Shown here in pieces: positions 6,502 to 29,964 of a stretch of DNA of 32,000 nt. Under the pieces are notes generated by a model, which was given only the letters and a program-made list of their open reading frames with translations, made no database searches and was not told where the DNA came from. The stretch comes from Telmatocola sphagniphila (lineage in GTDB: Bacteria; Planctomycetota; Planctomycetia; Gemmatales; Gemmataceae), in NCBI RefSeq assembly GCF_018398935.1, contig NZ_CP074694.1:6300001-6332000 (forward strand), written 5' to 3'. Position 1 is the stretch's first letter. The number at the start of each line of letters is the position of its first letter. Position numbers and translations under genes: made by a program.

Positions 6502-9500
6502 ATGCAGAGCACGTTCGGCGATTTGAGTCAAAAGGTTCCCCCCGCTGGGCTGTTAGGGTATTTGAATTTTTCAGATGGACAGCCTAACGGGAAGTTCCAG
6601 CAGCAATTGAACGAAGCTTATCGGTTCCTGGCCGATCATGGGGATGTTACGCCCTGGCACAGTCTGAAAGTCTGGCTCCAGGATCAGGCCGCCACTCTCG
6701 AAGCTACCGGTTCCTCGGCCTTCAAAGATCTCATTCAAGCCCGGGCGGTCATACGATTTGCGTTCGACCGGGTTCTGGTCCACTACAAAGAATTCCATTC
6801 CGATCTACTGGCCAATCAAAAGGACTGTATTCTATTCTCGCCCTTCTTTCTGGTCCGCGTCTGTGAAGCGGTTTTGAATCAGGGCGGTCCCTGGAACGAG
6901 GATAGCCGGATTATCGCGGGGGCCGTGCAGAAGCTCAACGATTTCGTCGGCCATCGTCCCGTGGCCATTCTGGAAACCCGGGCCCAAACCGACTATTACA
7001 AGCATGAAAAAGTCCGGCCAATCCCTCTCTATATCCGGGGCAGCGGCGTCGGAGCCGGGCCTTATTCGAAAATTGTCGAAAAGGCTCTGGAGATTTTGAA
7101 TTCAACCCCGGAAGAGATCCTTCGGGAAGCCTGTTTCAATATTAACCGGCTCGACGAACTGGCGATGGATCCCCGCCCGTACGACCATACTCATCCTTCG
7201 AACCGCCGGCCCAATTACCTTTTTGGCGAGTGGGATCCCCACTGCATCGACGGCTCGGGCTACTACCGCCGGTTTGTCGTGCGGCCCAATATTCTTTCCG
7301 CACTGGCTCAATGGGCGACCGATCCCGGCGAAGATTCGGAAGGACGTCTTTTCGAATCGGCGGCCGTGCTGGCCGGGACTCTGCTGATGGCCTCCGGCAT
7401 CTCCGGGGATGGTCCCTCCTGCCACGATTCGGATAGCAAACTGGCCATTCTGGTGCCTCAGAATGCTCGCTATCGTGACGCCTTTTATGCGCAACTTCTG
7501 GACAAACAAAACGGCACGTTTGCCAAACGGCTTCAGAAGGAAGCCAAGAAGCTTCGTCAGCCTTTCGGCGGTATCCGCCAGCATCTCAATCACACTCTGG
7601 CTCGGGAACGCGCCGGCCAGTTGCAGGATCGGGAACTGGCACTGCTCTTCGCCGATATGGGCTATCCGCGCATCAGCCGGGATTATGCCGCCCGCATTCC
7701 CACGGCCTCGATCCGCATTCTCAGCGAAATCCGCATCCGTCAGACCGGTCTCGAATTTCAGATTCGCAATGGCCGTACCGCCGGGGCGCACCTGCTGATT
7801 TCCGAAATCGAGGATTTCATTCATCGCGGCATCGACTGCGGCGCCTTGCCCGATCCCTGGAATATTCTCGGTTTCCAAGGCTTATTCCCGCTTTTCCAGG
7901 CCCGTGAAGATTCGGTCTTCGATACCCGCCACGAAGAATTGATCGATGTCGTTCAACGTCAGTTGGCGATCTATTCTTCCGCTTTGGCCGTCACGGCGGC
8001 CAACGGCGATACCAGCCTGCAGTCGATGCTCGGTCGGGGCATCAAGAAATTTGCCGCCTGGTGGGATCAGTTCGCGGCCTACGAAGTGAGTGATCTGCCC
8101 GCGGTTAAGGGAGGCGACCGCTCGGAGGCCGCTTTACACGTCGCTTCCGCACTGGCTCTCTGGGCCGAGGAACGCCGGCAAACCGACAAGTTCGATCTAC
8201 CCAAGAAAACCCAAAATGCCCTCCGATTCTGGCGAAATCAGCGCGAACGGTTCAAATCGGCACCCGCCTACGTTCAGGTCATCGATGCCTTGATTCAGCA
8301 GCAGGACTGGTGGGCGTCCATGGGTCTGATGATGGCCTGGCTGAACGAAGCCGAAACGATGCCGCTAACCGACGGCGAACCCGACTTCTTCGAACTGGGC
8401 CACCGCTGGATGGCGGGTGTCTTGCGCATTAACGACGATGCCGCCCGCCGCTCCTTGATCGAACGCTTCTTCGAGATGCTCGAAGCCAATGCCGGCGATT
8501 ACTGGAATGTGCCTGATCTCGTCGTCTCTTCGACCCCTGTCGATAAAGAGGAGACTTACTCCTCGGCCTACGACGATGTCAGCTATAAAGATTCCACATC
8601 GGATGAAGACGACGGCGGAATTATCGGCGGCGGTGAGGACGATGACATCAGCCTGGAAACCTATCAGGTTCTCTTCGAAAGAAGGCTCGGCTTCCTGAAG
8701 ATGATGGGGGAACTCATCTGCAAAGCCATCCCCTATCACCACTGCAAGGATTGGCTCGACACGGCCTGGTACTGGCGCAAGAAACTCGAAGAATTGCTGG
8801 ATATTCTGCATGAAATTATGATCTCGCCCCCCAGCGGCGGAGTCGAAGACGTCATCGAGTACGATCGCAAAAAGGCGGAGAAAGACCAGCTGATCGAAAT
8901 GGCCATCGATACGACGGTGGCCGTGGGCGCGGGGGTGCAATTGCTGGCCGCCGCCGATCTGCCGGAAGATCCGCTCTCAACCTGTCTGGTGAGCAATGAC
9001 CCCCAGAAAATTCGGGCAGCTCTGCCAGGTCTGTTGGAAAAGCTCTCTGGCGAACCGCTGCTGTTTATCCCGCTGGTCGAAGGCGGCCATCCGAAACAGG
9101 TGCTCCGGGCCAAGCTGAATCTGCACCTGCTGGAAACTCTGCTTGATCGCATCCCCCGTTTTGGCCTGGTACGCGAAACCTTCCACCTGGTGCAGGTGGC
9201 CCGCTCCATGGAGCAGAACAGCCCGCCGGAAGGCCGCAAAATTTCCGAATTCGACCGGCTGTTTCGCATGGCCTTACGGGCAGTTTCGGAAACGCTGCTC
9301 GACGTCGCCGCCGAATCGGAAAAAGAATCGAAACTCTCCAATGTTCGCAATGTCAGTCAGCTACTGCGCAAAGTGGCCGATTCCTTCTTGCAGCTTTGGA
9401 TTTCGCATTCCCAGACGCTACGACTCTCGGCCATCGAGGGAGTGGAAGACTGGGTCGCTTTACGGTCCTTCATCAAGACCTACGGTCGGGAACTCTTCAC

Positions 9501-10299
9501 TCCCGCCTTCATGAACCACGGCAACCTGCGCGGCATCCTTCAACGGGGCGTCGAAAACTGGCTCGAATCGCTGGCCGAGAATGCCACGGAAAATCCGCCG
9601 GAAAAACTGCTGACCGATCTGGAACAAGGGGTGATTTCACGGCGTCGGGCCGGCCAGCATCTGGAGGTGGTTTTGCAGGCCGTGACGGAACATTTCGACG
9701 AGTTCCGCGATTACAACACGACGACGACGCAGTCTGATTACGGGGAAAATCTCCATGTTCTCATGGACTTTTTGCGGCTGAAAGTTGCCTACGATCGTTA
9801 TGCCTGGCGGATGCGGCCCCTGGTCATCGCCCATGAAGTGCTATGCCGTCGCGGCCAGGCCGAGTACGCCGAGCAATGGCGGGCGAATATTGAAGATTTC
9901 ACGCGGAAATTGGCCGATAATCTTCTGGAGGATCTGGCCCGGCTGGAAGCAGAGCACGTCATCCGCCTACGGACCATCCGGGATCGCCTGGAAGAACGCT
10001 TCCTGCTGCCGTTGCGACTGGATGAACTCTCGGCCCTGATAGAGCCCTGTATCGAGGAGGCACGTAACGAGTCGGGCTCCAAAGAGAAGATCAACGAGTT
10101 TCTGGAAAAGCTGCATCCGCTGGCAGAACGGCCGACCGGTGTGGGCCTCGAAGCGCCGGATTGGTTGATTGAGTTGCAGAATGAGGTTCGACGCTCCCGC
10201 GAAAGTGCGGCCATCGAACCGCCGCGACCGGAACGCTTCGCTCTGAACTGGAGCGATCTGCAAAGGCAGTTGTCGGAATGGGATAAGCCGATCGATTAA
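6502..10299 (+). CDS. Large (1265 aa) uncharacterised, apparently all-helical cytoplasmic protein
   Basis: One uninterrupted ORF with an ATG start and backbone-like codon usage. I see no signal peptide, TM segment or catalytic motif. An acidic low-complexity linker (SSAYDDVSYKDSTSDEDDGGIIGGGEDDDISLETY) is encoded near 8563-8655. All track ORFs overlapping it are shorter. Confidence 0.75.
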   Translation: MQSTFGDLSQKVPPAGLLGYLNFSDGQPNGKFQQQLNEAYRFLADHGDVTPWHSLKVWLQDQAATLEATGSSAFKDLIQARAVIRFAFDRVLVHYKEFHSDLLANQKDCILFSPFFLVRVCEAVLNQGGPWNEDSRIIAGAVQKLNDFVGHRPVAILETRAQTDYYKHEKVRPIPLYIRGSGVGAGPYSKIVEKALEILNSTPEEILREACFNINRLDELAMDPRPYDHTHPSNRRPNYLFGEWDPHCIDGSGYYRRFVVRPNILSALAQWATDPGEDSEGRLFESAAVLAGTLLMASGISGDGPSCHDSDSKLAILVPQNARYRDAFYAQLLDKQNGTFAKRLQKEAKKLRQPFGGIRQHLNHTLARERAGQLQDRELALLFADMGYPRISRDYAARIPTASIRILSEIRIRQTGLEFQIRNGRTAGAHLLISEIEDFIHRGIDCGALPDPWNILGFQGLFPLFQAREDSVFDTRHEELIDVVQRQLAIYSSALAVTAANGDTSLQSMLGRGIKKFAAWWDQFAAYEVSDLPAVKGGDRSEAALHVASALALWAEERRQTDKFDLPKKTQNALRFWRNQRERFKSAPAYVQVIDALIQQQDWWASMGLMMAWLNEAETMPLTDGEPDFFELGHRWMAGVLRINDDAARRSLIERFFEMLEANAGDYWNVPDLVVSSTPVDKEETYSSAYDDVSYKDSTSDEDDGGIIGGGEDDDISLETYQVLFERRLGFLKMMGELICKAIPYHHCKDWLDTAWYWRKKLEELLDILHEIMISPPSGGVEDVIEYDRKKAEKDQLIEMAIDTTVAVGAGVQLLAAADLPEDPLSTCLVSNDPQKIRAALPGLLEKLSGEPLLFIPLVEGGHPKQVLRAKLNLHLLETLLDRIPRFGLVRETFHLVQVARSMEQNSPPEGRKISEFDRLFRMALRAVSETLLDVAAESEKESKLSNVRNVSQLLRKVADSFLQLWISHSQTLRLSAIEGVEDWVALRSFIKTYGRELFTPAFMNHGNLRGILQRGVENWLESLAENATENPPEKLLTDLEQGVISRRRAGQHLEVVLQAVTEHFDEFRDYNTTTTQSDYGENLHVLMDFLRLKVAYDRYAWRMRPLVIAHEVLCRRGQAEYAEQWRANIEDFTRKLADNLLEDLARLEAEHVIRLRTIRDRLEERFLLPLRLDELSALIEPCIEEARNESGSKEKINEFLEKLHPLAERPTGVGLEAPDWLIELQNEVRRSRESAAIEPPRPERFALNWSDLQRQLSEWDKPID

Positions 10300-10604
10300 T
10301 CGAATTTCCTTTTATTGGGAAACGCCAATATGCTTGAAAATTACTCCCCCTACCAACAGAAGGTTATCAAGAATTACTACGCGAACATCGATAAGGTGAG
10401 TCTGCAACGGCTCTCCGAATTGGTGACGGAACTCTATCTGGCGGAAGGTAAGAAGAAGGACAAGCTCTGGCAAACCGCGGCCACGACCATGAAGAAGCTG
10501 GAGGTCCCGCAAAGCCGGATCGATCACATCACGTCAAAGGCCGACGTGACTCTGTTGGCCGGGCTGGTGAAGGAGCTGATGGGGAAGTGAGGAGGGGGAT
10601 TTTA
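10245..10604 (+). repeat. Direct repeat, left copy: last 18 codons of the 1265-aa gene, the 30-nt spacer and the 86-aa gene
   Basis: Aligns without gaps through the stop codon (10590 / 13815) to 13470..13834; homology decays (with indels) in the last ~15-20 nt. The 30-nt spacer tcgaatttccttttattgggaaacgccaat is identical in both copies. Confidence 0.9.
10330..10590 (+). CDS. Small (86 aa) conserved hypothetical protein, copy 1, partner of the 1265-aa gene
   Basis: The ATG at 10330 lies 30 nt after the stop of the 1265-aa gene; the track ORF starts at an upstream TTG (10315). Translation is MLENYSPYQQKVIKNYYANIDKVSLQRLSELVTELYLAEGKKKDKLWQTAATTMKKLEVPQSRIDHITSKADVTLLAGLVKELMGK. Coding status is supported by the synonymous-only divergence from copy 2. 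Confidence 0.75.
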   Translation: MLENYSPYQQKVIKNYYANIDKVSLQRLSELVTELYLAEGKKKDKLWQTAATTMKKLEVPQSRIDHITSKADVTLLAGLVKELMGK

Positions 10605-10718
10605 AGATCGTGGATATCTCAATTTATTTTTGGAACAAACGCCTCTTTGATCAACCACTCCAGGCTAATTGCGTTTAATATTTGTAGAGTTTCAAAAATG
10701 CCCGGATGAAAAACCACT

Positions 10719-10958
10719 TCATCGATTGCCGACGCTGGCGGCCAAGCGCTTCTTTGCCATATTCTCGTCACATCTGGTATTGTTCACTGTGCTCAAAGTA
10801 CGGCAATAAATCGTAGCTATATAGTTTGGTCCATGATTCACTCGCGTATGGCTCTCGCTATCGCTAATCGCCGCATACATGAGCCTGACCTCGAGATTCA
10901 TGTTCACGGCGTTGGATGCAGTAATCCGATGAGCGGAATAATTGCCGAAATGAGTCAC
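10719..10958 (-). CDS. Hypothetical 79-aa ORF (weak call)
   Basis: GTG start preceded by a strong CTGGAGGACACC Shine-Dalgarno context (GGAGG about 5 nt upstream). Its start lies 94 nt from the left end of palindromic element A. No family recognised, and the composition is N/S/T/A-rich. Confidence 0.3.
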   Translation of the reverse strand: MTHFGNYSAHRITASNAVNMNLEVRLMYAAISDSESHTRVNHGPNYIATIYCRTLSTVNNTRCDENMAKKRLAASVGNR

Positions 10959-11052
10959 GGTGTCCTCCAGGGATGTTGGTAGCGTGCATCAAGTGGAAAC
11001 AGCAAGAAGGGGGGTTAAAAGTGTCGCAGATAATGCAGAGCAATTGTTTCTT

Positions 11053-11121
11053 AGAGGCTCTAACAAAACCCCTTTTTGTAGCAGTATTCCATGAACAAAC
11101 TGAGGTTTTATTAGAGGTTCT
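11053..11121 (+). repeat. 69-bp palindromic (MITE-like / REP-like) element, copy A
   Basis: Sequence agaggctctaacaaaacccc-tttttgtagcagtattccatgaacaaactg-aggttttattagaggttct. The 20-nt arms pair at 16/20 Watson-Crick positions plus one G-T pair. The asymmetric centre sets the orientation, which matches copy C. Confidence 0.85.
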
Positions 11122-11389
11122 TATTCATTTGCCTGGCGTAAGCTCAAAGTTGAAAACCAAGGATGAGCTTGGAATTAGAGCAGGAGCAGTTGCGGTAAGT
11201 TAAATGCCTTAAGATAAGAAAAAAAATGAAAATATTTTTAAAATTGGCTTGACCGATGAATAAGGCAAAGTTAATTTGCATGCATGCTGAAGCCTTTCCC
11301 AGACAATTATCAGACTAAATAAGATTGCGGTTAAATCACATACAAAGAAGCAACAGTAGAAATATATGCCTTGATTTAAAAGATTGACC

Positions 11390-11554
11390 ATGAATAATCG
11401 CGATGAATCGTGCATGTCAGAATTTAATATGCTGAAGGCCGAATTGTGTTTTATTGCCACCACATACGAAAAAGCGCATGAAATCTATTCTTTGAAATCG
11501 AGTGCCGATCAAGGTTCGGACTTCGCCGGATTGCTTAGTTACGGCAGCAAATAA
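11390..11554 (+). CDS. Possible small ORF (54 aa) leading the AT-rich operon (very weak call)
   Basis: ATG at 11390, TAA at 11552-11554. Translation is MNNRDESCMSEFNMLKAELCFIATTYEKAHEIYSLKSSADQGSDFAGLLSYGSK. It ends 24 nt before the ATG of the next gene. It is below the ORF-track size cut-off, has no clear RBS and no recognised family. Confidence 0.2.
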   Translation: MNNRDESCMSEFNMLKAELCFIATTYEKAHEIYSLKSSADQGSDFAGLLSYGSK

Positions 11555-11578
11555 TAATCGTTGGCTGGAGTATTAGAT

Positions 11579-11989
11579 ATGAACTCGATTGCGAACTTGA
11601 TGGTGGTGCTTGGGGGGATAGGTCTCTTTTTTGCATTCGGGCCAAATAGTTTACTAAATGGTAAAACCGATGCGACAAGCCAGAGTGACTCTAGAGAGCT
11701 GGTGGTCTCAAAGATAGAATGCAAGAAGATTTCTGACCATTATGAAGCGGAAGTTTGTTTCGAGAACAAAACGCAGAATTCAGTCTCCATCATCGAAATT
11801 ATCCCTACCTGCAGCTGCGCGAGCGGGAGAATTGAAGATTCCATGGTTGATCCTGTAAGGGAAGGTAAGATACGACTCGAATTTAAGCCCGGAGCGAGCG
11901 ATACTCAACAGATCATGATTCTCTACGAGGGTGTATTCGGAGGTCGATACCCTATTGTCGTCAATCTTAAATTGGGTTCCAAATCTTAG
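11579..11989 (+). CDS. Membrane-anchored DUF1573-like (single Ig-like beta-sandwich) protein
   Basis: The ATG at 11579 gives MNSIANLMVVLGGIGLFFAFG (an N-terminal TM anchor), followed by a pattern that fits DUF1573: CFENKTQNSVSIIEIIPTCSCASGRIEDSMVDPVREGKIRLEFKP. The family SCGC motif appears here as TCSC. Codon usage is strongly AT-rich. Confidence 0.55.
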   Translation: MNSIANLMVVLGGIGLFFAFGPNSLLNGKTDATSQSDSRELVVSKIECKKISDHYEAEVCFENKTQNSVSIIEIIPTCSCASGRIEDSMVDPVREGKIRLEFKPGASDTQQIMILYEGVFGGRYPIVVNLKLGSKS

Positions 11990-12108
11990 CTCGTTGAACG
12001 GGAACGATCATAAAGCAATCTTTACTATATATAACTAATCCCATATTGAATTTACTTCGAATAGAATATTCGACTTGTGGGTGTAAATTTACAACTGAAA
12101 GTGTTTAT

Positions 12109-13203
12109 ATGAAAATATTTATTTGCTTAGCAGTTGCGTTATTGCTCGATTACAATTGCTGCCGGGCGGAAAGTAATAATGCCGAGGAGATTGCCAAACT
12201 TCAAAAAGCGGGACTCGAAGCTTTGGCCTACTTTAAATCCATCACTTATAGTGGCAGTGACTCCAGCTCGGAAATTCTGTCAATGCTCAAAAAAGACGCC
12301 GAACTAAAAAATATAGCATTTACCGATTGCAGTACCATGGACTACGATAGGTATGAAGTTTATAATAACGACAGTCAAAAATACAATCATAAATATAGTT
12401 TAAAACAGATTGTGGGGAAAGATTGTTTGTTTGAAAATAGCAGTCTGATATCTAAGCCGCAAGAAGTGTGGCAAACCAGCTACTATTTTGGAGGCAAATC
12501 TTTGCAATTTACGGGAAAGCGAATTGTGCATCGCATAACAAATACAGGGGATTGCGGCGCGATAAGATATTTGGATTTGCGATTTATTAGTTCCCTTAGT
12601 CAAACTTTAACTCGCGAATTTAAAGGCGATTCCACATATGCGGAATATCTTGAAATGATTGAAGATAGAATAAAGAATTCATTAAAATGTAAAATATATA
12701 AAACAGAGAAAGATGTATTTGCAAAAATAGAATCAAATAAAAAATTGGCTGACGTTTCTTTGTACCTTCGATTTGAAAAAACTAAATCCGAATTTCTTCT
12801 AGCCGAAGTTGCAATTGCGACACCTAGTACTCTTTTTTACAAAAAATCATCATATGATGTTGCATTTAATGAGTTTCTGCCTCGTGAGGTGTCCTGTTCG
12901 CAATATGATAACTCAATACTAATTGAACACAATTCGATCACAGTAAAAAATCTTGTTGTAGGTAACTGCAAATGCGAGCCGAAAGATATATCTTTCGATG
13001 GGTTAGGTGAAATTGCGTACGGTGATTTGGTCTATCCGGTATACAGTAAAAATTTCATCCAATCAATATTTTATGGCGAAAAAATTGTAAAAATTGCGAC
13101 AGAGCGAAATCCCAAATTATACCTCATTGTTACCTCATGTGCCTTTCTAGCACTGGGATTATTAATACATTTGAGAAAAAGAATACTTAAAATGAGTAAA
13201 TAG
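12109..13203 (+). CDS. Hypothetical Cys-rich extracytoplasmic protein with a signal peptide and a C-terminal TM anchor
   Basis: The ATG at 12109 gives MKIFICLAVALLLDYNCCRAES (signal-like). The C-terminus LYLIVTSCAFLALGLLIHLRKRILKMSK is a TM helix plus a basic tail. Cysteines are scattered through the protein. The track ORF begins at an upstream TTG (12046). The gene is very AT-rich and its stop lies 8 nt before element B. Confidence 0.6.
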   Translation: MKIFICLAVALLLDYNCCRAESNNAEEIAKLQKAGLEALAYFKSITYSGSDSSSEILSMLKKDAELKNIAFTDCSTMDYDRYEVYNNDSQKYNHKYSLKQIVGKDCLFENSSLISKPQEVWQTSYYFGGKSLQFTGKRIVHRITNTGDCGAIRYLDLRFISSLSQTLTREFKGDSTYAEYLEMIEDRIKNSLKCKIYKTEKDVFAKIESNKKLADVSLYLRFEKTKSEFLLAEVAIATPSTLFYKKSSYDVAFNEFLPREVSCSQYDNSILIEHNSITVKNLVVGNCKCEPKDISFDGLGEIAYGDLVYPVYSKNFIQSIFYGEKIVKIATERNPKLYLIVTSCAFLALGLLIHLRKRILKMSK

Positions 13204-13211
13204 AAATATTA

Positions 13212-13280
13212 AGAGGCTCTGACAAAACCCCATTTCGTCCATTGAATACTGCTACAAAGAGAGGTTTTGTTAGGGCTTCT
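13212..13280 (-). repeat. 69-bp palindromic (MITE-like / REP-like) element, copy B, inverted relative to A and C
   Basis: The reverse complement of B aligns ungapped to A at 56/69 positions by hand count. It shares an exact 13-mer (gtattcaatggac) with C. In direct orientation the centres do not align. Confidence 0.85.
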
Positions 13281-13310
13281 AAATATCAAAAAAATGGGCT
13301 TCTCAATGTT

Positions 13311-13469
13311 GTAACCGCCCACACCTCGTCTTGAGATTATCTGGAATTGCTCTTGCGCTGGGGAATTAATTATCTTATCTCGGGGATGGAGTCTATCAGC
13401 GAAGAGTGGCTTATTCGCCAAACGCCGGAAGTTCGGGCTGTGCTGCGGATTCTTTTGAACCGCATCGCC
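13311..13469 (+). mobile_element. Truncated 5' end of an IS66-family-like insertion sequence (terminal GTAA inverted repeat plus the first ~31 codons of the transposase)
   Basis: G+C rises abruptly at GTAACCGCCCACACC (13311); IS66-family ends typically begin GTAA. An ATG at 13386 encodes MESISEEWLIRQTPEVRAVLRILLNRIAELE.., resembling the N-terminal leucine-zipper region (DUF6444-type, ..PEVQ....L..RIAELEA.L) of IS66-like transposases as I remember them. The frame then runs out of frame into host-like sequence and stops at 13511. Confidence 0.4.
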
Positions 13470-13470
13470 G

Positions 13471-13524
13471 AACTGGAGCGATCTGCAAAAGCAGCTGTCG
13501 GAGTACGATAAGCCGATCGAATAA
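13471..13524 (+). pseudogene. Orphan 3'-terminal remnant (17 codons plus stop) homologous to the C-terminus of the 1265-aa gene
   Basis: Reads NWSDLQKQLSEYDKPIE-stop versus NWSDLQRQLSEWDKPID-stop at 10246-10299. An in-frame TGA lies just upstream (13456-13458), so there is no long ORF. Confidence 0.6.
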
Positions 13525-13554
13525 TCGAATTTCCTTTTATTGGGAAACGCCAAT

Positions 13555-13815
13555 ATGCTCGAAAATTACTCCCCCTACCAGCAGAAGGTTATCAAGAATT
13601 ACTACGCGAACATCGATAAGGTGAGTCTGCAACGGCTCTCCGAATTGGTGACGGAGCTCTATCTGGCGGAAGGTAAGAAGAAAGACAAGCTCTGGCAAAC
13701 GGCGGCCACGACGATGAAGAAGCTGGAGGTCCCGCAGAGCCGGATTGATCACATCACCTCGAAAGCGGATGTGACGCTATTGGCCGGGGTGGTGAAGGAG
13801 CTGATGGGGAAGTAG
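13555..13815 (+). CDS. Small (86 aa) conserved hypothetical protein, copy 2
   Basis: Identical in length to copy 1 with one amino-acid difference (L to V near the C-terminus). There are 15 synonymous third-position differences, and the stop is TAG instead of TGA. The upstream 30 nt are identical to copy 1. Confidence 0.7.
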   Translation: MLENYSPYQQKVIKNYYANIDKVSLQRLSELVTELYLAEGKKKDKLWQTAATTMKKLEVPQSRIDHITSKADVTLLAGVVKELMGK

Positions 13816-13865
13816 GGGGAGGAGGTGTTTTTTGCAGGCATATATATTCTTCGAATAAAAATCAA

Positions 13866-15638
13866 TTACACTATTGTTTTCTCTTTGGCATGTAAAGATG
13901 CTAAAAGAAGGCCAATATGAAATACGCAATCTGTGAGGTATGGATTTATTTCGTTCGGCAAAATATCGCCATGAAATAGTCTGTTTCGAACATTAAGACC
14001 TAATTGATCAGTAAGAATATATCGCATATAAAATATTTCATCTTCGCTTTTGAAGATATTTAACAAAATAGGATCTCTCAAAAGGTCATCAAGTATTCGG
14101 AGATGAAATGCTCCACTTCTCGATTTTTTTATAATATACCCGTCAGAAAATTTTATCAAAAGACGAATTGCAGATTCGAGCTGAGGAAGAAACAGATGTA
14201 ATGCTGAAATCCAATCGTTCTCTAGGTATGATTTGATTGCCCTTTCAGTTAGTAACTTTTTATTTTCGCTGAATAAATGATTTGAGTGTATATACTCTGA
14301 AAAGTTTTCTTTATTTATAAGATTTCGAGATATACAAGCTTCAATAATTTGTCTATAGAGAAAATATTTGACAGGTTGGGTTATGCTCCAATATGACTTT
14401 AAAGCGCCGCCCTCGTCATTTTCGGCACTTCCGATGCTCCCTTGCTCGCGGCCATCTCTCGCTATTAATTTTTTTGTGACAAGATTCTGTAAGGGAAATT
14501 GCGCGACTAATCCTTTGATGTCTTTTCGATCCTGCTCAAAATTGGGTAAGCCTTGTATAGCGAGGTTTGTAAACACATCGCCAGGTGCTTCGATGAAGTT
14601 TTTTATGATACATTCAATTTCGCCGTTAGGAATGTGGATCGAGCTAGTCAGAGGGTGTAGTTCCATAGACATTTTTTTTGCACACTCAGAATACATTTTT
14701 ATTGCTTCGGCTGCCAAATCGTTTAAATTATACTGTTGTAAGGTCTTATGAATCTCCTGCATCCAAGCTGTAGTTATGATGCCTTTTATATCATGATTTT
14801 TTATTTTTTCAATATAAGCATCGGCGTATACCTTCAAAACGCGTGTGACATCTGACGAAGTTGCTGCTTTATTGTAAAATTCTGCCAGCCGAGTTGCGGC
14901 GAATTTTACACCTTCGGGCTCACTAGAATATTCTTGAAAAAGATTCCTGTATTTCGCAAGATTATTTTCGAGATTATTTATTATTTCAATAATTGAATCA
15001 ATTGAAATTTTACTTTTACAAGAACTTTCCAAAAGTAGATCATATGGATTCTTCCAAACATAGTAGGTCTTCTCAGTGTCTTTTGATTTGTAAAATTCGA
15101 TAATTGTAGAGCATAATTCTTGTAGAAGGTCATCTTCTTTGGTCAGGATTGCGAGTTGAATGGATCGTTCGAATCGAGCATAAGTTGTGTGCAAATATAC
15201 GTCCAGATCCGATTTGGCGATATCTATCGCTGCTCGAATGGTTGTCTTTGTGACTCTATTATCTTTCATTTTAAGTCTGGGCATCATGTCCCATGCTATA
15301 TCCGAATATCTGTATTTGAATATCGGATGAGTAACATCTTCACTCCGTTTAATCCAATACGAAATCCATTTTTCATTTAAATCAATGATTGATGGGAACT
15401 GACTGTTTTCATACTCCGAAAAGGGTGTATAATAATGCTCTGATCCATATCTTGACAATTGCTTTCCAGTAATGGGCCGAACCCTGAAAGCGAAAATTTC
15501 TGCTTCGAGTTCAAAATCGGATTGAGTAGGATTTAGGTTGGGAATTAATTTGATTAATTCTTCTGCCAACTCGTCTTCGGTAAAATTTTTCTTAAATGTT
15601 TCAAACTTATGAATTATTTCATCAATATGAGCTTTCAT
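13866..15638 (-). CDS. 590-aa protein with a C-terminal HEPN-like R-x4-H domain (resembles the DUF4209 family)
   Basis: Uninterrupted AT-rich ORF with an ATG start. The C-terminal region LFLPQLESAIRLL...YILTDQLGLNVRNRLFHGDILP carries R-N-R-L-F-H, encoded at 13971-13988 on the minus strand. This fits the HEPN Rx4-6H signature and my memory of the DUF4209 motif G.NLRN..AHG. The N-terminal ~450 aa are helical with no recognised motif. Confidence 0.7.
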   Translation of the reverse strand: MKAHIDEIIHKFETFKKNFTEDELAEELIKLIPNLNPTQSDFELEAEIFAFRVRPITGKQLSRYGSEHYYTPFSEYENSQFPSIIDLNEKWISYWIKRSEDVTHPIFKYRYSDIAWDMMPRLKMKDNRVTKTTIRAAIDIAKSDLDVYLHTTYARFERSIQLAILTKEDDLLQELCSTIIEFYKSKDTEKTYYVWKNPYDLLLESSCKSKISIDSIIEIINNLENNLAKYRNLFQEYSSEPEGVKFAATRLAEFYNKAATSSDVTRVLKVYADAYIEKIKNHDIKGIITTAWMQEIHKTLQQYNLNDLAAEAIKMYSECAKKMSMELHPLTSSIHIPNGEIECIIKNFIEAPGDVFTNLAIQGLPNFEQDRKDIKGLVAQFPLQNLVTKKLIARDGREQGSIGSAENDEGGALKSYWSITQPVKYFLYRQIIEACISRNLINKENFSEYIHSNHLFSENKKLLTERAIKSYLENDWISALHLFLPQLESAIRLLIKFSDGYIIKKSRSGAFHLRILDDLLRDPILLNIFKSEDEIFYMRYILTDQLGLNVRNRLFHGDILPNEINPYLTDCVFHIGLLLASLHAKEKTIV

Positions 15639-15668
15639 TGCACTTGCACCAAATAAATCTTCTGAAAT

Positions 15669-15735
15669 AGAGGTATTAACAAAACCCCATTTTTGCGGTA
15701 TTCAATGGACAAATTGAGGTATTGTCAGAGTTTCT
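15669..15735 (+). repeat. 67-bp palindromic (MITE-like / REP-like) element, copy C (most degenerate)
   Basis: Sequence agaggtattaacaaaaccccatttttgcggtattcaatggacaaattgaggtattgtcagagtttct, in the same orientation as A. It lies 30 nt upstream of the ATG of the 590-aa gene and 36 nt beyond the stop of the esterase gene. It marks the composition shift back to the backbone. Confidence 0.8.
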
Positions 15736-15771
15736 TAGGGGCATTATTGTTCTTTCTGAGAAAAATGTCCC

Positions 15772-16662
15772 TCACTTCCCCTTCTCCCTCAGCTTCAACC
15801 CCGAGTGCTTCGCCACGAACTCTAGCAGTGCCTGCGTGGCGGGGTCCGATTCGCTCAACATCAGCCAGGCCATGATCGTAATATGATTCCGTTCCGGGAT
15901 CATTTGAACCGACACATCGACTTTGTGCTTCTTCAATTCCTCCGCAAAGTTCTTCGACATCACATCACAGGTTGGGAAGTCCTTGTCGGCATACAAAATC
16001 AAAAACGGCGGCTCCTTACCGGTTACCTGCTGGATCGGCGAAGCACTTTCGGCCGCTTCCTTCCCCTTCCCGATGATTGGCACAAACCGGTTCTCGTGGA
16101 AGTTGTAAATGCCGCTGATCGGCATCACTCCTTTGATATCTTTCAGGGAAAGCTTCTCCGCCTTCAAATAGCTTTCGTTTGTTCCCAATAGGGCCGCGAG
16201 ATGGCCGCCCGCCGATTGCCCGGTCACAAATATCTGATCGTTTTTTCCGTCATATTTGCCGATATTCTTATGCGTCCAGGCAAACGCTTTCGCCACATCT
16301 TCGATATGCCCCGGATGCTGGACCTGCGGCGTCAACCGATAGCTGAGCACCACCGTTCCGATCCCGTTCTTGGCGAATACATGGCCCACCGGGCCGTACA
16401 TCTTGCGGTCGCCGGTGGTCCAACCGCCGCCATGGATGAAGAACAGAACGGGGAAGTCCTTCTGGCCCTTGGGAATAAACAGATCGAGCTTGTGCTTGTT
16501 ATCTTCGCCCTCTTTGCCTTCCACGTAAGGAATATCCTTGTGAACCTCGACCTCGTACGGGCCCGCGATTTTGATCGGCTTTGTATCTTCGGCCTGTGCA
16601 CTCATTGAGAAACATCCGAGGGTGACAATCAAAGTTAGCAGGGTGTTCCAGTAATTCTTCAT
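15772..16662 (-). CDS. Secreted alpha/beta-hydrolase (esterase/lipase, HGGG-type)
   Basis: 296 aa with a signal peptide (MKNYWNTLLTLIVTLGCFSMSAQA). It has an oxyanion-hole motif (FIHGGGW) and a nucleophile elbow (GQSAGG). Confidence 0.8.
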   Translation of the reverse strand: MKNYWNTLLTLIVTLGCFSMSAQAEDTKPIKIAGPYEVEVHKDIPYVEGKEGEDNKHKLDLFIPKGQKDFPVLFFIHGGGWTTGDRKMYGPVGHVFAKNGIGTVVLSYRLTPQVQHPGHIEDVAKAFAWTHKNIGKYDGKNDQIFVTGQSAGGHLAALLGTNESYLKAEKLSLKDIKGVMPISGIYNFHENRFVPIIGKGKEAAESASPIQQVTGKEPPFLILYADKDFPTCDVMSKNFAEELKKHKVDVSVQMIPERNHITIMAWLMLSESDPATQALLEFVAKHSGLKLREKGK

Positions 16663-29240: not shown

Positions 29241-29964
29241 GGATGCCTCAGGATCGAAAATACGTTTAAAATTCAGAAAATTCCGTTCACTGCGATGTTA
29301 AAGATTTGAGTAGAGCGCGTCAACGAAAATGCTTCGATAATGCGTGGAGCCCTGCTTGGAACAACCGCGATAGCGATATTCTCGTTTCGGTTTACACTCT
29401 ATTTGGCGAAATAGCGGGCTGTTCTGGGGGCGATATTCCGCTAGTCACTTCTTTCAGGGAAGACATTTCATCGAAAAGTGCCTCGAGAATACTCTAGTAG
29501 AAGAAGCAAGCCCCCACAGTGATCGCGAAGAAACAAAGAAATTGGGTACTGGCTCTGCCGATGATCTCTCGACGGAGACAATCAACGATTTTCTCCATGC
29601 TTTTCTGGAGGTTTCTGATTTTTGGAGATGTACAGGCTCTCAGGTTTGGAGAAAAAAGGTGATGCGGCCGTGCAGAAGGGTAAATTTTCGGTCCGGAAAA
29701 GGGAAATCGACGTTTTTCTTGGAAAAACGCAGAAAAGACCCTTCAAAATTGTCAGTTTAATACCGGGAAGGTCATCAAATTGCTGTTTTCCACTATATGA
29801 AAATTGATGATCTGATGACCTCTCTAGAGAAAACCCGTACACCGAACGGTTTTTTCCCTATCGAATTTTGTGAGGATTATGTGCTTTTCCATTTCTCATC
29901 TTGCCGACCTTCCTCTGGCGCCACATAATTTTCAAATACACTATATGGGCAAAAGTTGTATGAT

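Follow-up and report, generated by a model that had tools for sequence, protein, structure and literature searches.

The three short palindromic repeats in a small AT-rich island of foreign DNA in this planctomycete genome have the appearance of relics left by a miniature transposable element that was brought in with the island. Copies A, B and C are read here as a decaying, MITE-like palindromic repeat with TA/TWA target duplication, native to AT-rich donor DNA, a reading to which we give about an even chance. They were studied in a window of 32,000 nt, i.e., the whole stretch of DNA analysed, where they occupy three intergenic gaps of an island with 36% GC inside a genome of 55% GC. The features concerned are:

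11054-11120, plus strand: copy A, 67 nt, GAGGCTCTAAC...GTTC, flanks TTA (11051-11053) and TTA (11121-11123)
11122-13211, plus strand: low-GC block of 2.09 kb, 37% GC, bracketed by A and B
11561/11579-11989, plus strand: DUF1573 protein, inside the A-B block
12109-13203, plus strand: 364-aa ORFan, inside the A-B block
13213-13279, minus strand: copy B, 67 nt, flanks TAA (13210-13212) and TAA (13280-13282)
13866-15638, minus strand: 590-aa gene in 35%-GC DNA, C-terminal DUF4209 (ERMARD/C6orf70-type HEPN), PADLOC PDC-S39 match
15670-15734, plus strand: copy C, 65 nt with a 2-nt deletion, flanks ATA (15667-15669) and TTA (15735-15737)

The three copies that the original prediction had placed at 11053-11121, 13212-13280 and 15669-15735 were borne out with ends refined by 1 nt, the palindrome unit proper being GAGG...YTTC of 65-67 nt. 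Each copy is built of terminal inverted arms of about 20 bp, an inner stem of 5 bp and an asymmetric loop of 15 nt, and the palindrome is imperfect, with 80-90% complementarity of the arms. Pairwise identity among the copies amounts to 76-81% (about 80% for A and B), C is the most decayed, and the 13-mer GTATTCAATGGAC is indeed common to C and inverted B. A covariance model made from the three copies scored A at 95.9, B at 97 and C at 82 bits (E 1e-20 to 1e-24), and the next-best match in a scan of 67 kb reached 16 bits. The element ends are sharp: the flanks are unrelated and similarity is gone within a few bases of each copy. TA brackets every copy on both sides, as had been claimed; the 3-nt flanks are direct, not inverted, with 8 of 9 positions equal and TA at 6/6 ends, a pattern in which target duplication and conserved element termini are indistinguishable without an empty site. 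All copies are intergenic and contain only incidental open frames, and their GC content of 36-44% is island-like (35-37%) and unlike that of the host (55%). A 76-aa ORF spanning A, compared with 1.84 billion representative proteins, returned repetitive eukaryotic proteins only, through summed weak matches.

Several readings had been put forward for the repeat, of which a MITE-type element with TA duplication fits best on account of its terminal inverted repeats, the direct TA/TWA flanks at all three copies, the small size, the lack of coding capacity and the neutral-looking decay, whereas the others are unsupported. A MITE is defined as a core enclosed by terminal inverted repeats and by direct-repeat target duplications, shorter than 200 bp, lacking a transposase and forming a long RNA stem-loop (PMC3184786). 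The anatomy of the element matches this definition and thereby supports the MITE-like reading, as terminal inverted repeats enclose a short non-coding core (65-67 bp in all, within the <200-400 bp expected) with no transposase, and a long RNA stem-loop is predicted for A and B. According to this reading, a small non-autonomous transposable element of 67 bp with inverted repeats of about 20 bp would have multiplied by transposition and inserted into intergenic DNA of one or more AT-rich donor genomes, and A, B and C would be copies of it that are old and have diverged. They would have entered the planctomycete along with the island, as its passengers, or else have transposed soon after its arrival, and would now be decaying neutrally. 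A current function is probably absent, and any effect exerted today, e.g., by hairpin formation at the 3' terminus of the 364-aa mRNA or within the 5' leader of the 590-aa defence gene, would be incidental.

The covariance model found no further copy in the unique source DNA searched, about 45 kb out of a 6.59-Mb genome, and a parent insertion sequence with matching ends was not seen there either; recombinase, integrase and transposase genes are missing within about 55 kb. The element was likewise not found in the GTDB representatives (one genome for each of 185,579 species), in JGI metagenomes, IMG/VR, and plasmid and phage collections, in scans that needed an exact pattern of 18-19 bases and could miss diverged members. 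Matches to the arm-plus-loop pattern (15 in IMG/VR, 32 in GTDB species representatives and 38 in JGI metagenomes) were all chance matches, none of which extended past the pattern; aligned to the consensus, chance matches scored at most 27 and the true copy C in L001/L002 50. The esterase gene beside C was found on the same two contigs only. An arms-only scan of IMG/VR led to unrelated phage hairpins, BLASTN of the island and of the element consensus against plasmids and phages gave no match, and Rfam, which includes no attC family, yielded nothing at E<=1 over 9-18 kb and nothing at gathering thresholds over the whole window. As the island genes comprise an ORFan and a defence candidate lacking relatives, the donor lineage is probably unsampled, which would explain why no other copies were found. 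It counts against the MITE-like reading that the three known copies are all confined to 4.7 kb, which is unusual for a dispersed repeat, that evidence of mobility (an empty site, a parent insertion sequence, a further copy) was missing in the approximately 45 kb, and that all copies lie at edges of low-GC blocks, as a recombination-site model would predict. Moreover, tabulated sizes of bacterial MITEs start at about 104 bp (PMC3184786), and 67 bp falls below.

Besides the ORFan and the DUF1573 gene, the island carries a candidate defence gene of HEPN type (PADLOC PDC-S39), whose DUF4209/HEPN assignment follows the literature (PMC3710099). No relatives of the 364-aa and 590-aa proteins were found by word-index search, and hence the palindrome is not traceable to other loci via its neighbours. 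Copy A lies in a long non-coding stretch upstream of the DUF1573/364-aa block, 94 nt from the GTG of a minus-strand 79-aa ORF; this ORF has no family match and is absent among the called genes on record. B lies 8 nt past the TAG of the 364-aa gene if counted from 13212, and 9 nt from the refined start 13213. C occupies the gap that separates the host esterase gene (stop at 15772) from the 590-aa gene (ATG at 15638), on the right-hand margin of the low-GC DNA; it lies 30 nt from this ATG, 36 nt from the esterase stop and within 36 nt of the island/host junction. The distances of 94, 8 and 30 nt had been given correctly in the original prediction, while the “IS end” supposed beside B (13310) is unsupported, with Pfam, NCBIfam and plasmid BLAST all negative; the other sequence matching it, at 1028, falls within a DNA-alkylation repair gene and shows no extension. 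The 459 nt between a duplication and A have no similarity to any sequence compared, and an empty site was not obtained, the closest relatives of the 91-aa gene carrying different downstream genes. Each copy stands at the edge of a low-GC block, and the 2.09-kb block fits exactly between A and B. The idea that the copies partition the island into modules is right insofar as they fill three of the few intergenic gaps, but nothing indicates that the modules arose through them.

That the elements function as cis-acting transcript hairpins, whether as stabilisers or insulators of mRNA 3' ends (B for the 364-aa gene, C for the esterase gene) and/or, in the case of C, as a regulatory structure in the 5' leader of the 590-aa HEPN gene, seems unlikely to us. 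In this case they would persist by controlling foreign, possibly toxic genes. Predicted RNA folds of A (-21 to -26 kcal/mol) and B (-23 to -27 kcal/mol) are far better than those of shuffled sequences (z -3.3 to -5.0), and the positions of B and C, 8 and 36 nt past stop codons, and of C 30 nt before an ATG, would suit such a role. In addition, a promoter-like GGGACA-17-AATAAT (15771-15743, minus strand) just upstream of C would place C in the 590-aa leader, and Correia elements and other MITEs are known sources of promoters and processing hairpins (PMC3184786). However, it is C, adjoining the only well-supported gene start, that no longer folds: its plus strand is no better than shuffles (z -0.2) and its minus strand weak, the predicted fold having presumably been lost through decay. 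Compensatory arm changes, which the original prediction had proposed to look for with a covariance model, occur in none of the 26 stem pairs; 11/26 pairs are variable, four by one-sided changes to wobble and seven only by unpaired cells. Pairing across the three copies is no better than in shuffles, stem and loop vary at equal rates (about 27% of columns), and counts of G.U versus A.C (6 vs 7) favour neither strand, i.e., a strand-specific RNA signal is lacking. There is thus no sign of selection on pairing, and judged from the three sequences the pattern of divergence looks neutral. Nor do the elements resemble intrinsic (Rho-independent) terminators, the stems being A+T-rich with no T-run after them; a terminator scan gave 7 terminator-like sites against 5.9 expected, of which one partially overlapped B, a match at chance level, and Rfam holds no match either. 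An outward sigma-70 promoter in the elements was unsupported by the promoter scan. The motif TTGAAT-17-TTGTTA pointed out in C is present, but TTGTTA fits TATAAT at 1/6 positions and the scan did not list it.

A still lower probability is given to the possibility that the hairpins are recombination or insertion sites, serving as joints of mobile cassettes in the manner of attC sites or CALIN arrays but differing in structure and served by a recombinase that is unlinked or unknown; through them, ORFan and defence genes would have accumulated next to the conserved 91-aa gene. In integrons, attC sites are imperfect palindromes of 57-141 bp between promoterless ORFan/defence cassettes, with the R''/R' consensus RYYYAAC/GTTRRRY. 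The likeness to attC/CALIN arrays lies in imperfect palindromes between ORFan and defence genes and in outer boxes resembling this consensus, which the arms CTCTAAC...GTTAGAG come near. Cassette arrays typically carry such cargo as the ORFan and the candidate defence gene found here, and the copies edge low-GC blocks, with exact bracketing by A and B and with C at most 36 nt from the island/host junction. Furthermore, from the duplication it seems that two acquisitions took place independently downstream of the 91-aa gene, both with an element. However, the attC-like character that had been proposed for the sites found no support in structure, sequence or arrangement. Folded as RNA and DNA on both strands, the elements show only symmetric 1x1 or 2x2 mismatches, lacking the extrahelical bases and the unpaired central spacer recognised by IntI; the would-be spacer AAAAC/GTTTT is fully paired, and the palindrome extends 4-6 bp beyond the would-be R boxes. 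These boxes (CTCTAAC/CTCTGAC/TATTAAC and ATTAGAG/GTTAGGG/GTCAGAG) reach 5-6/7 matches, and in no orientation do all copies retain AAC as well as GTT. The array is not co-oriented (loops +,-,+), an element 3' of the 590-aa gene is missing, the covariance model revealed no degraded copy at other block edges, and neither intI nor any other integrase or recombinase gene occurs in about 55 kb. Finally, the copies are decaying, and the 3-nt direct flanks match copy by copy, pointing to separate insertions. Very improbable is the proposal that the palindromes are joints of a cassette system without linked integrase, structurally unlike attC, that would feed ORFan and HEPN-type defence genes next to a conserved small Planctomycetota gene, with the flipped loop of B as a trace of hairpin extrusion. 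If the elements marked entry and exit points of cassettes, they would represent a second hairpin-based cassette system besides integrons; such a reading is required by no result here.

Copy B had been described as inverted, which applies to its 15-nt loop (13/15 positions identical to A inverted, 3/15 direct) but not to its outer arms, which are closer to A in direct (36/40) than in inverted orientation (32/40). Two asymmetric arm mismatches, G.T in column 6 and C.A in column 21, have the same polarity in B as in A and C. The arms are therefore a mosaic, and the orientation of B is mosaic, not a clean whole-element inversion, even though the terminal extra base and column 12 favour a simple inversion of the whole element. 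Hairpin-promoted minute inversions of 4-50 bp are described from chloroplast DNA, where, as in B, a short hairpin loop is found in either orientation (PMC12371153). By analogy, the B loop could be a case of minute inversion relative to A and C; however, the chloroplast examples are orthologous sites, whereas paralogous copies are compared here, and most features of B are explained equally well or better by inversion of the whole element. Least credible of all is a phase-variable switch, in which recombination between A and B or B and C flips 2-kb modules or the 15-nt loop flips in vivo: the A/B and B/C loops are inverted repeats, the B loop is inverted while the two arm mismatches keep the A/C polarity, which would fit a loop-only minute inversion, and a Logan contig of the same strain begins exactly at the first base of the A loop, but the longest exact runs common to two copies (15 nt inverted, 14 nt direct; range 10-15 nt) fall short of what homologous recombination needs, the neighbourhood lacks an invertase or tyrosine recombinase and no recombinase of any kind lies in about 55 kb, flipping the modules would move no recognisable promoter, the terminal base and column 12 speak for whole-element inversion, the contig break is off the k=31 branch point that a loop flip would give, and the assembled contigs of both runs are 100% equal to the window across B and C, showing the window orientation only. 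Module flipping between the copies, as suggested originally, is thus unsupported.

In comparison with known systems, the repeats recall REP/BIME sequences as extragenic palindromic repeats possibly forming RNA or DNA hairpins. REPs, however, comprise 20-40 bp, bear GTAG or CGTC as a tag at one palindrome end, are present in high copy number and are mobilised by RAYTs (PMC3733652), whereas the 67-bp element has GAGG/YTTC termini, contains GTAG in the loop alone and has no RAYT/Y1 transposase nearby. Inspection for dif/pdif-type Xer sites disclosed no 11-6-11 layout with inner ATAA/TTAT-type loop symmetry. In MITE-flanked units, such as the integron mobilisation unit and MITE-bracketed integrons, two copies bracket a short block like A and B do (PMC3184786), but those copies are identical and duplicated only at the outer ends, while A and B share about 80% identity and are bordered by matching triplets of their own (TTA/TTA for A, TAA/TAA for B), which point to separate insertions. 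The repeats are a minor curiosity and not a new kind of system. If the MITE-like reading is true, they constitute a new family of palindromic repeats of very small size, stemming from an AT-rich lineage not yet sampled; their main use would be as a marker of the origin of island DNA, with repeats travelling along with defence islands. Correia-type MITEs measure about 104-157 bp and are dispersed by the hundreds, in contrast to 67 bp and three clustered copies here; they also differ in that the present element has no detectable sequence homology in the databases and, by eye, no match to the IHF site WATCAANNNNTTR in the loop. The arm motif TAACAAAA presumably also occurs in the Correia repeat, which we take as a lead only. 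Correia elements and similar bacterial MITEs have terminal inverted repeats of 20-26 bp and a TA duplication and often lie just 5' of genes (PMC3184786), and it is with the Correia elements (CREE/NEMIS) of Neisseria, RUP, ERIC and Nezha that A, B and C share their small size, non-coding and intergenic nature, terminal inverted repeats, long stem-loop and TA flanks.

The three copies of the palindromic element (A, B and C) lie in an island of roughly 10.6-15.77 kb of the window with a GC content of ~35-47%, compared with ~55% in the genome (contig of 6.59 Mb), and the genes flanking this island encode DUF1559/N-methyl-motif proteins, which, like the family of the 91-aa protein, indicate a planctomycete (Planctomycetota) background. 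All three were confirmed in the sequence where the original prediction had placed them, and gene order is as follows:

6502-10299, 1265-aa gene
10315-10590, conserved 91-aa gene (called as 86-aa)
10594-11052, 459 nt of DNA without identifiable content, 45.5% GC
11054-11120, copy A, 67 nt
11122-13211, 2.09-kb block of 37% GC with the genes of a DUF1573 protein and a 364-aa ORFan
13213-13279, copy B, 67 nt
after B, stretch of ~190 nt named 'IS end' in the original prediction
13468-13818, second copy of the 3' end (55 nt) of the 1265-aa gene together with the complete 91-aa gene
13866-15638, minus strand, 590-aa gene, 35% GC
15670-15734, copy C, 65 nt
beyond C, 36-nt spacer, stop of a host esterase gene, then a DinB-type polymerase gene

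Neither an integrase nor an invertase or transposase was encoded in the window and in a further 3 kb and 10 kb on either side, and no tRNAs and no Rfam matches were found. The DNA at 10594-11052, between the first copy of the 91-aa gene and A, contains no ORFs but short ones, of 79, 59 and 76 aa; nothing compared resembled it, not even the DNA that follows the 91-aa gene in relatives.

Trimmed to the palindrome, GAGG...YTTC, the element measures 67 nt in A and B and 65 nt in C, with 3-nt flanks of TTA/TTA (A), TAA/TAA (B) and ATA/TTA (C) and pairwise identities of 76-81%. Its outer stem of ~20 bp is separated by a 2x2 internal loop from an inner stem of 5 bp (TTTGT/ACAAA), which closes the 15-nt loop AGCAGTATTCAATGG. 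The repeat is far beyond chance, since a covariance model built from A, B and C gave these copies 82-97 bits, while in 67 kb scanned with the filters turned off no other match exceeded 16 bits, and 0.65 Mb of further DNA, although pre-selected for a partial element match, had none above 20.5 bits. The best match outside the family (29763-29827, plus strand, 16 bits, E 0.13) was an unrelated hairpin of ~65 nt, GGTCATCAAATTG...TGATGATCTGATGACC, situated where GC drops locally, ~190 nt before the gene for ribosomal protein S15; it had no Rfam match and is possibly part of the rpsO leader.

Set against the definition of MITEs used for comparison (PMC3184786), A, B and C have, in our judgement of their sequence features, about an even chance of being copies of a MITE-like element, and this option of the original prediction stands as the best fit by repeats, flanks, size, position and decay. 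The copies are tiny, non-coding and intergenic; they have terminal inverted repeats, and each one is flanked by a matching pair of direct repeats of its own. Their composition is that of the foreign DNA, and their decay looks neutral. The donor lineage of the element would be an unsampled one, as the island genes without sampled relatives suggest, and this could be why no further copies were seen. Weak points are that there is no sign of mobility and no parent IS and that all known copies are clustered; another is their position at the edges of low-GC blocks, which is partly trivial because these edges are the only intergenic gaps of the island. If the element is a MITE, a parent IS of the IS630/mariner or IS5 type would be expected with ends GAGGCTCTAACAAAACC.

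Further copies were sought with a pattern of the invariant left arm and loop, TAACAAAACC, 8-14 nt, GTATTCNATG, which is exact at 18-19 positions and thus misses diverged members, in collections that exclude the source genome. It matched 32 times in one representative genome each of 185,579 species and 38 times in JGI metagenomes, and an 18-base version matched 15 times in IMG/VR; these numbers are close to chance expectation, and no match in the three collections reached past the pattern. An arms-only pattern found unrelated hairpins alone in IMG/VR, BLASTN gave no match in plasmids and phages for either the island or the element consensus, and a protein search with the ORF reading through A returned nothing relevant.

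The alternative that A, B and C are selected transcript hairpins is improbable, though it fares best among the rivals. As RNA, A and B still fold well, but C is decayed and does not fold, a T-run is absent, and covariation is absent as well: among the 26 stem pairs, 15 are invariant, four changed one-sidedly to wobble, seven differ by unpaired cells alone and none changed on both sides. Observed pairing (85.5%) was not above that of shuffles, variable columns were equally frequent in the loop (4/15) and elsewhere (16/58), G.U versus A.C mismatches favoured neither strand, and as single-stranded DNA all copies fold weakly (-4 to -11 kcal/mol). Although three sequences give low power, the pattern is that of neutral decay and not one in which an RNA or DNA structure was maintained or a binding site protected. 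Nor does the proposal of an outward promoter stand.

Orientations of plus, minus and plus for A, B and C are seen when the copies are aligned on the asymmetric centre. The predicted inversion of B clearly holds for its loop (13/15 identical to A inverted, 3/15 direct); its outer arms fit A better directly (36/40) than inverted (32/40). The asymmetric mismatches G.T in column 6 and C.A in column 21 of the alignment keep one polarity on the window strand throughout A, B and C, whereas the terminal extra base (TA-GAGG versus TAA-GAGG) and column 12 go with the loop. Two models would accommodate this. In the first, roughly favoured, B is inverted as a whole with a TA duplication, and columns 6 and 21 owe their polarities either to independent hits or to gene conversion from one neighbouring copy to another. 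In the second, the duplication is TWA, every arm is direct, and B's loop alone would have flipped, by analogy with the hairpin-promoted inversions of 4-50 bp in chloroplast DNA (PMC12371153).

Hairpin recombination or cassette sites, among them the attC-like sites offered in the original prediction, are a still less probable explanation: the structure defining attC is absent, a recombinase is missing from the window and its flanks, and each copy has a putative flank duplication of its own. An invertible switch is very unlikely; again no recombinase was found in the window and the flanks obtained, and exact runs common to any two copies are 10-15 nt, too short under either model of B for homologous recombination to invert the modules or remove them. 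The remaining probability goes to something else.

The direct duplication (10243-10593 and 13468-13818) comprises 351 nt at a spacing of 3225 and an identity of 92.6%, spanning the final 55 nt of the 1265-aa gene and the entire 91-aa gene. Between the two 91-aa coding sequences there are 18 differences, 15 of which fall on third codon positions, and a single residue (L to V) distinguishes the proteins; in the second copy, the truncated 1265-aa tail shows conservative changes and keeps its frame. These third-position and conservative changes point to divergence under purifying selection, probably in different lineages. Campbell-type integration of a circle of ~3.2 kb that carried a xenologous gene copy, its cargo being A, B and the 2-kb block between them, would fit this arrangement.

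Neither Pfam nor NCBIfam nor plasmid BLAST supported the 'IS end' (13310-13467, TGTAACCGCC...); an open frame in it runs into the duplicated gene tail, and the only other similar 19-mer (1028-1046, three mismatches) lies inside a DNA-alkylation repair gene. A Logan contig of the same strain (SRR14506984_837), 100% identical to 11080-13372, has its start precisely at the base that opens the 15-nt loop of A; its other end lies 62 nt inside this putative IS fragment. The break at 11080, for which the window holds no explanatory exact repeat of at least 31 nt, could be a hairpin artefact, a coverage artefact or heterogeneity at A; that at 13372 hints that part of 13310-13467 is repeated elsewhere in the genome.

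The 590-aa gene is a lone candidate for an RNase-type defence gene: its protein matches the PADLOC candidate defence family PDC-S39 (E 1e-27) and has, besides a weak DUF7380 match, a C-terminal DUF4209, which is the HEPN domain of the C6orf70/ERMARD family (PMC3710099). The 364-aa ORFan (12109-13203, plus strand), downstream of the DUF1573 protein gene, has a hydrophobic N-terminal segment and no Pfam, NCBIfam or PADLOC match. For both proteins, a word-index search of 5.8 billion proteins yielded no relatives.

Compared with known systems, the element does not qualify as an attC site, a REP or an intrinsic terminator on the defining features that were tested. Correia-type MITEs are closest to it in their workings, although it is half their size and unrelated to them in sequence, and it is probably a new member of the small palindromic MITE-like repeats.
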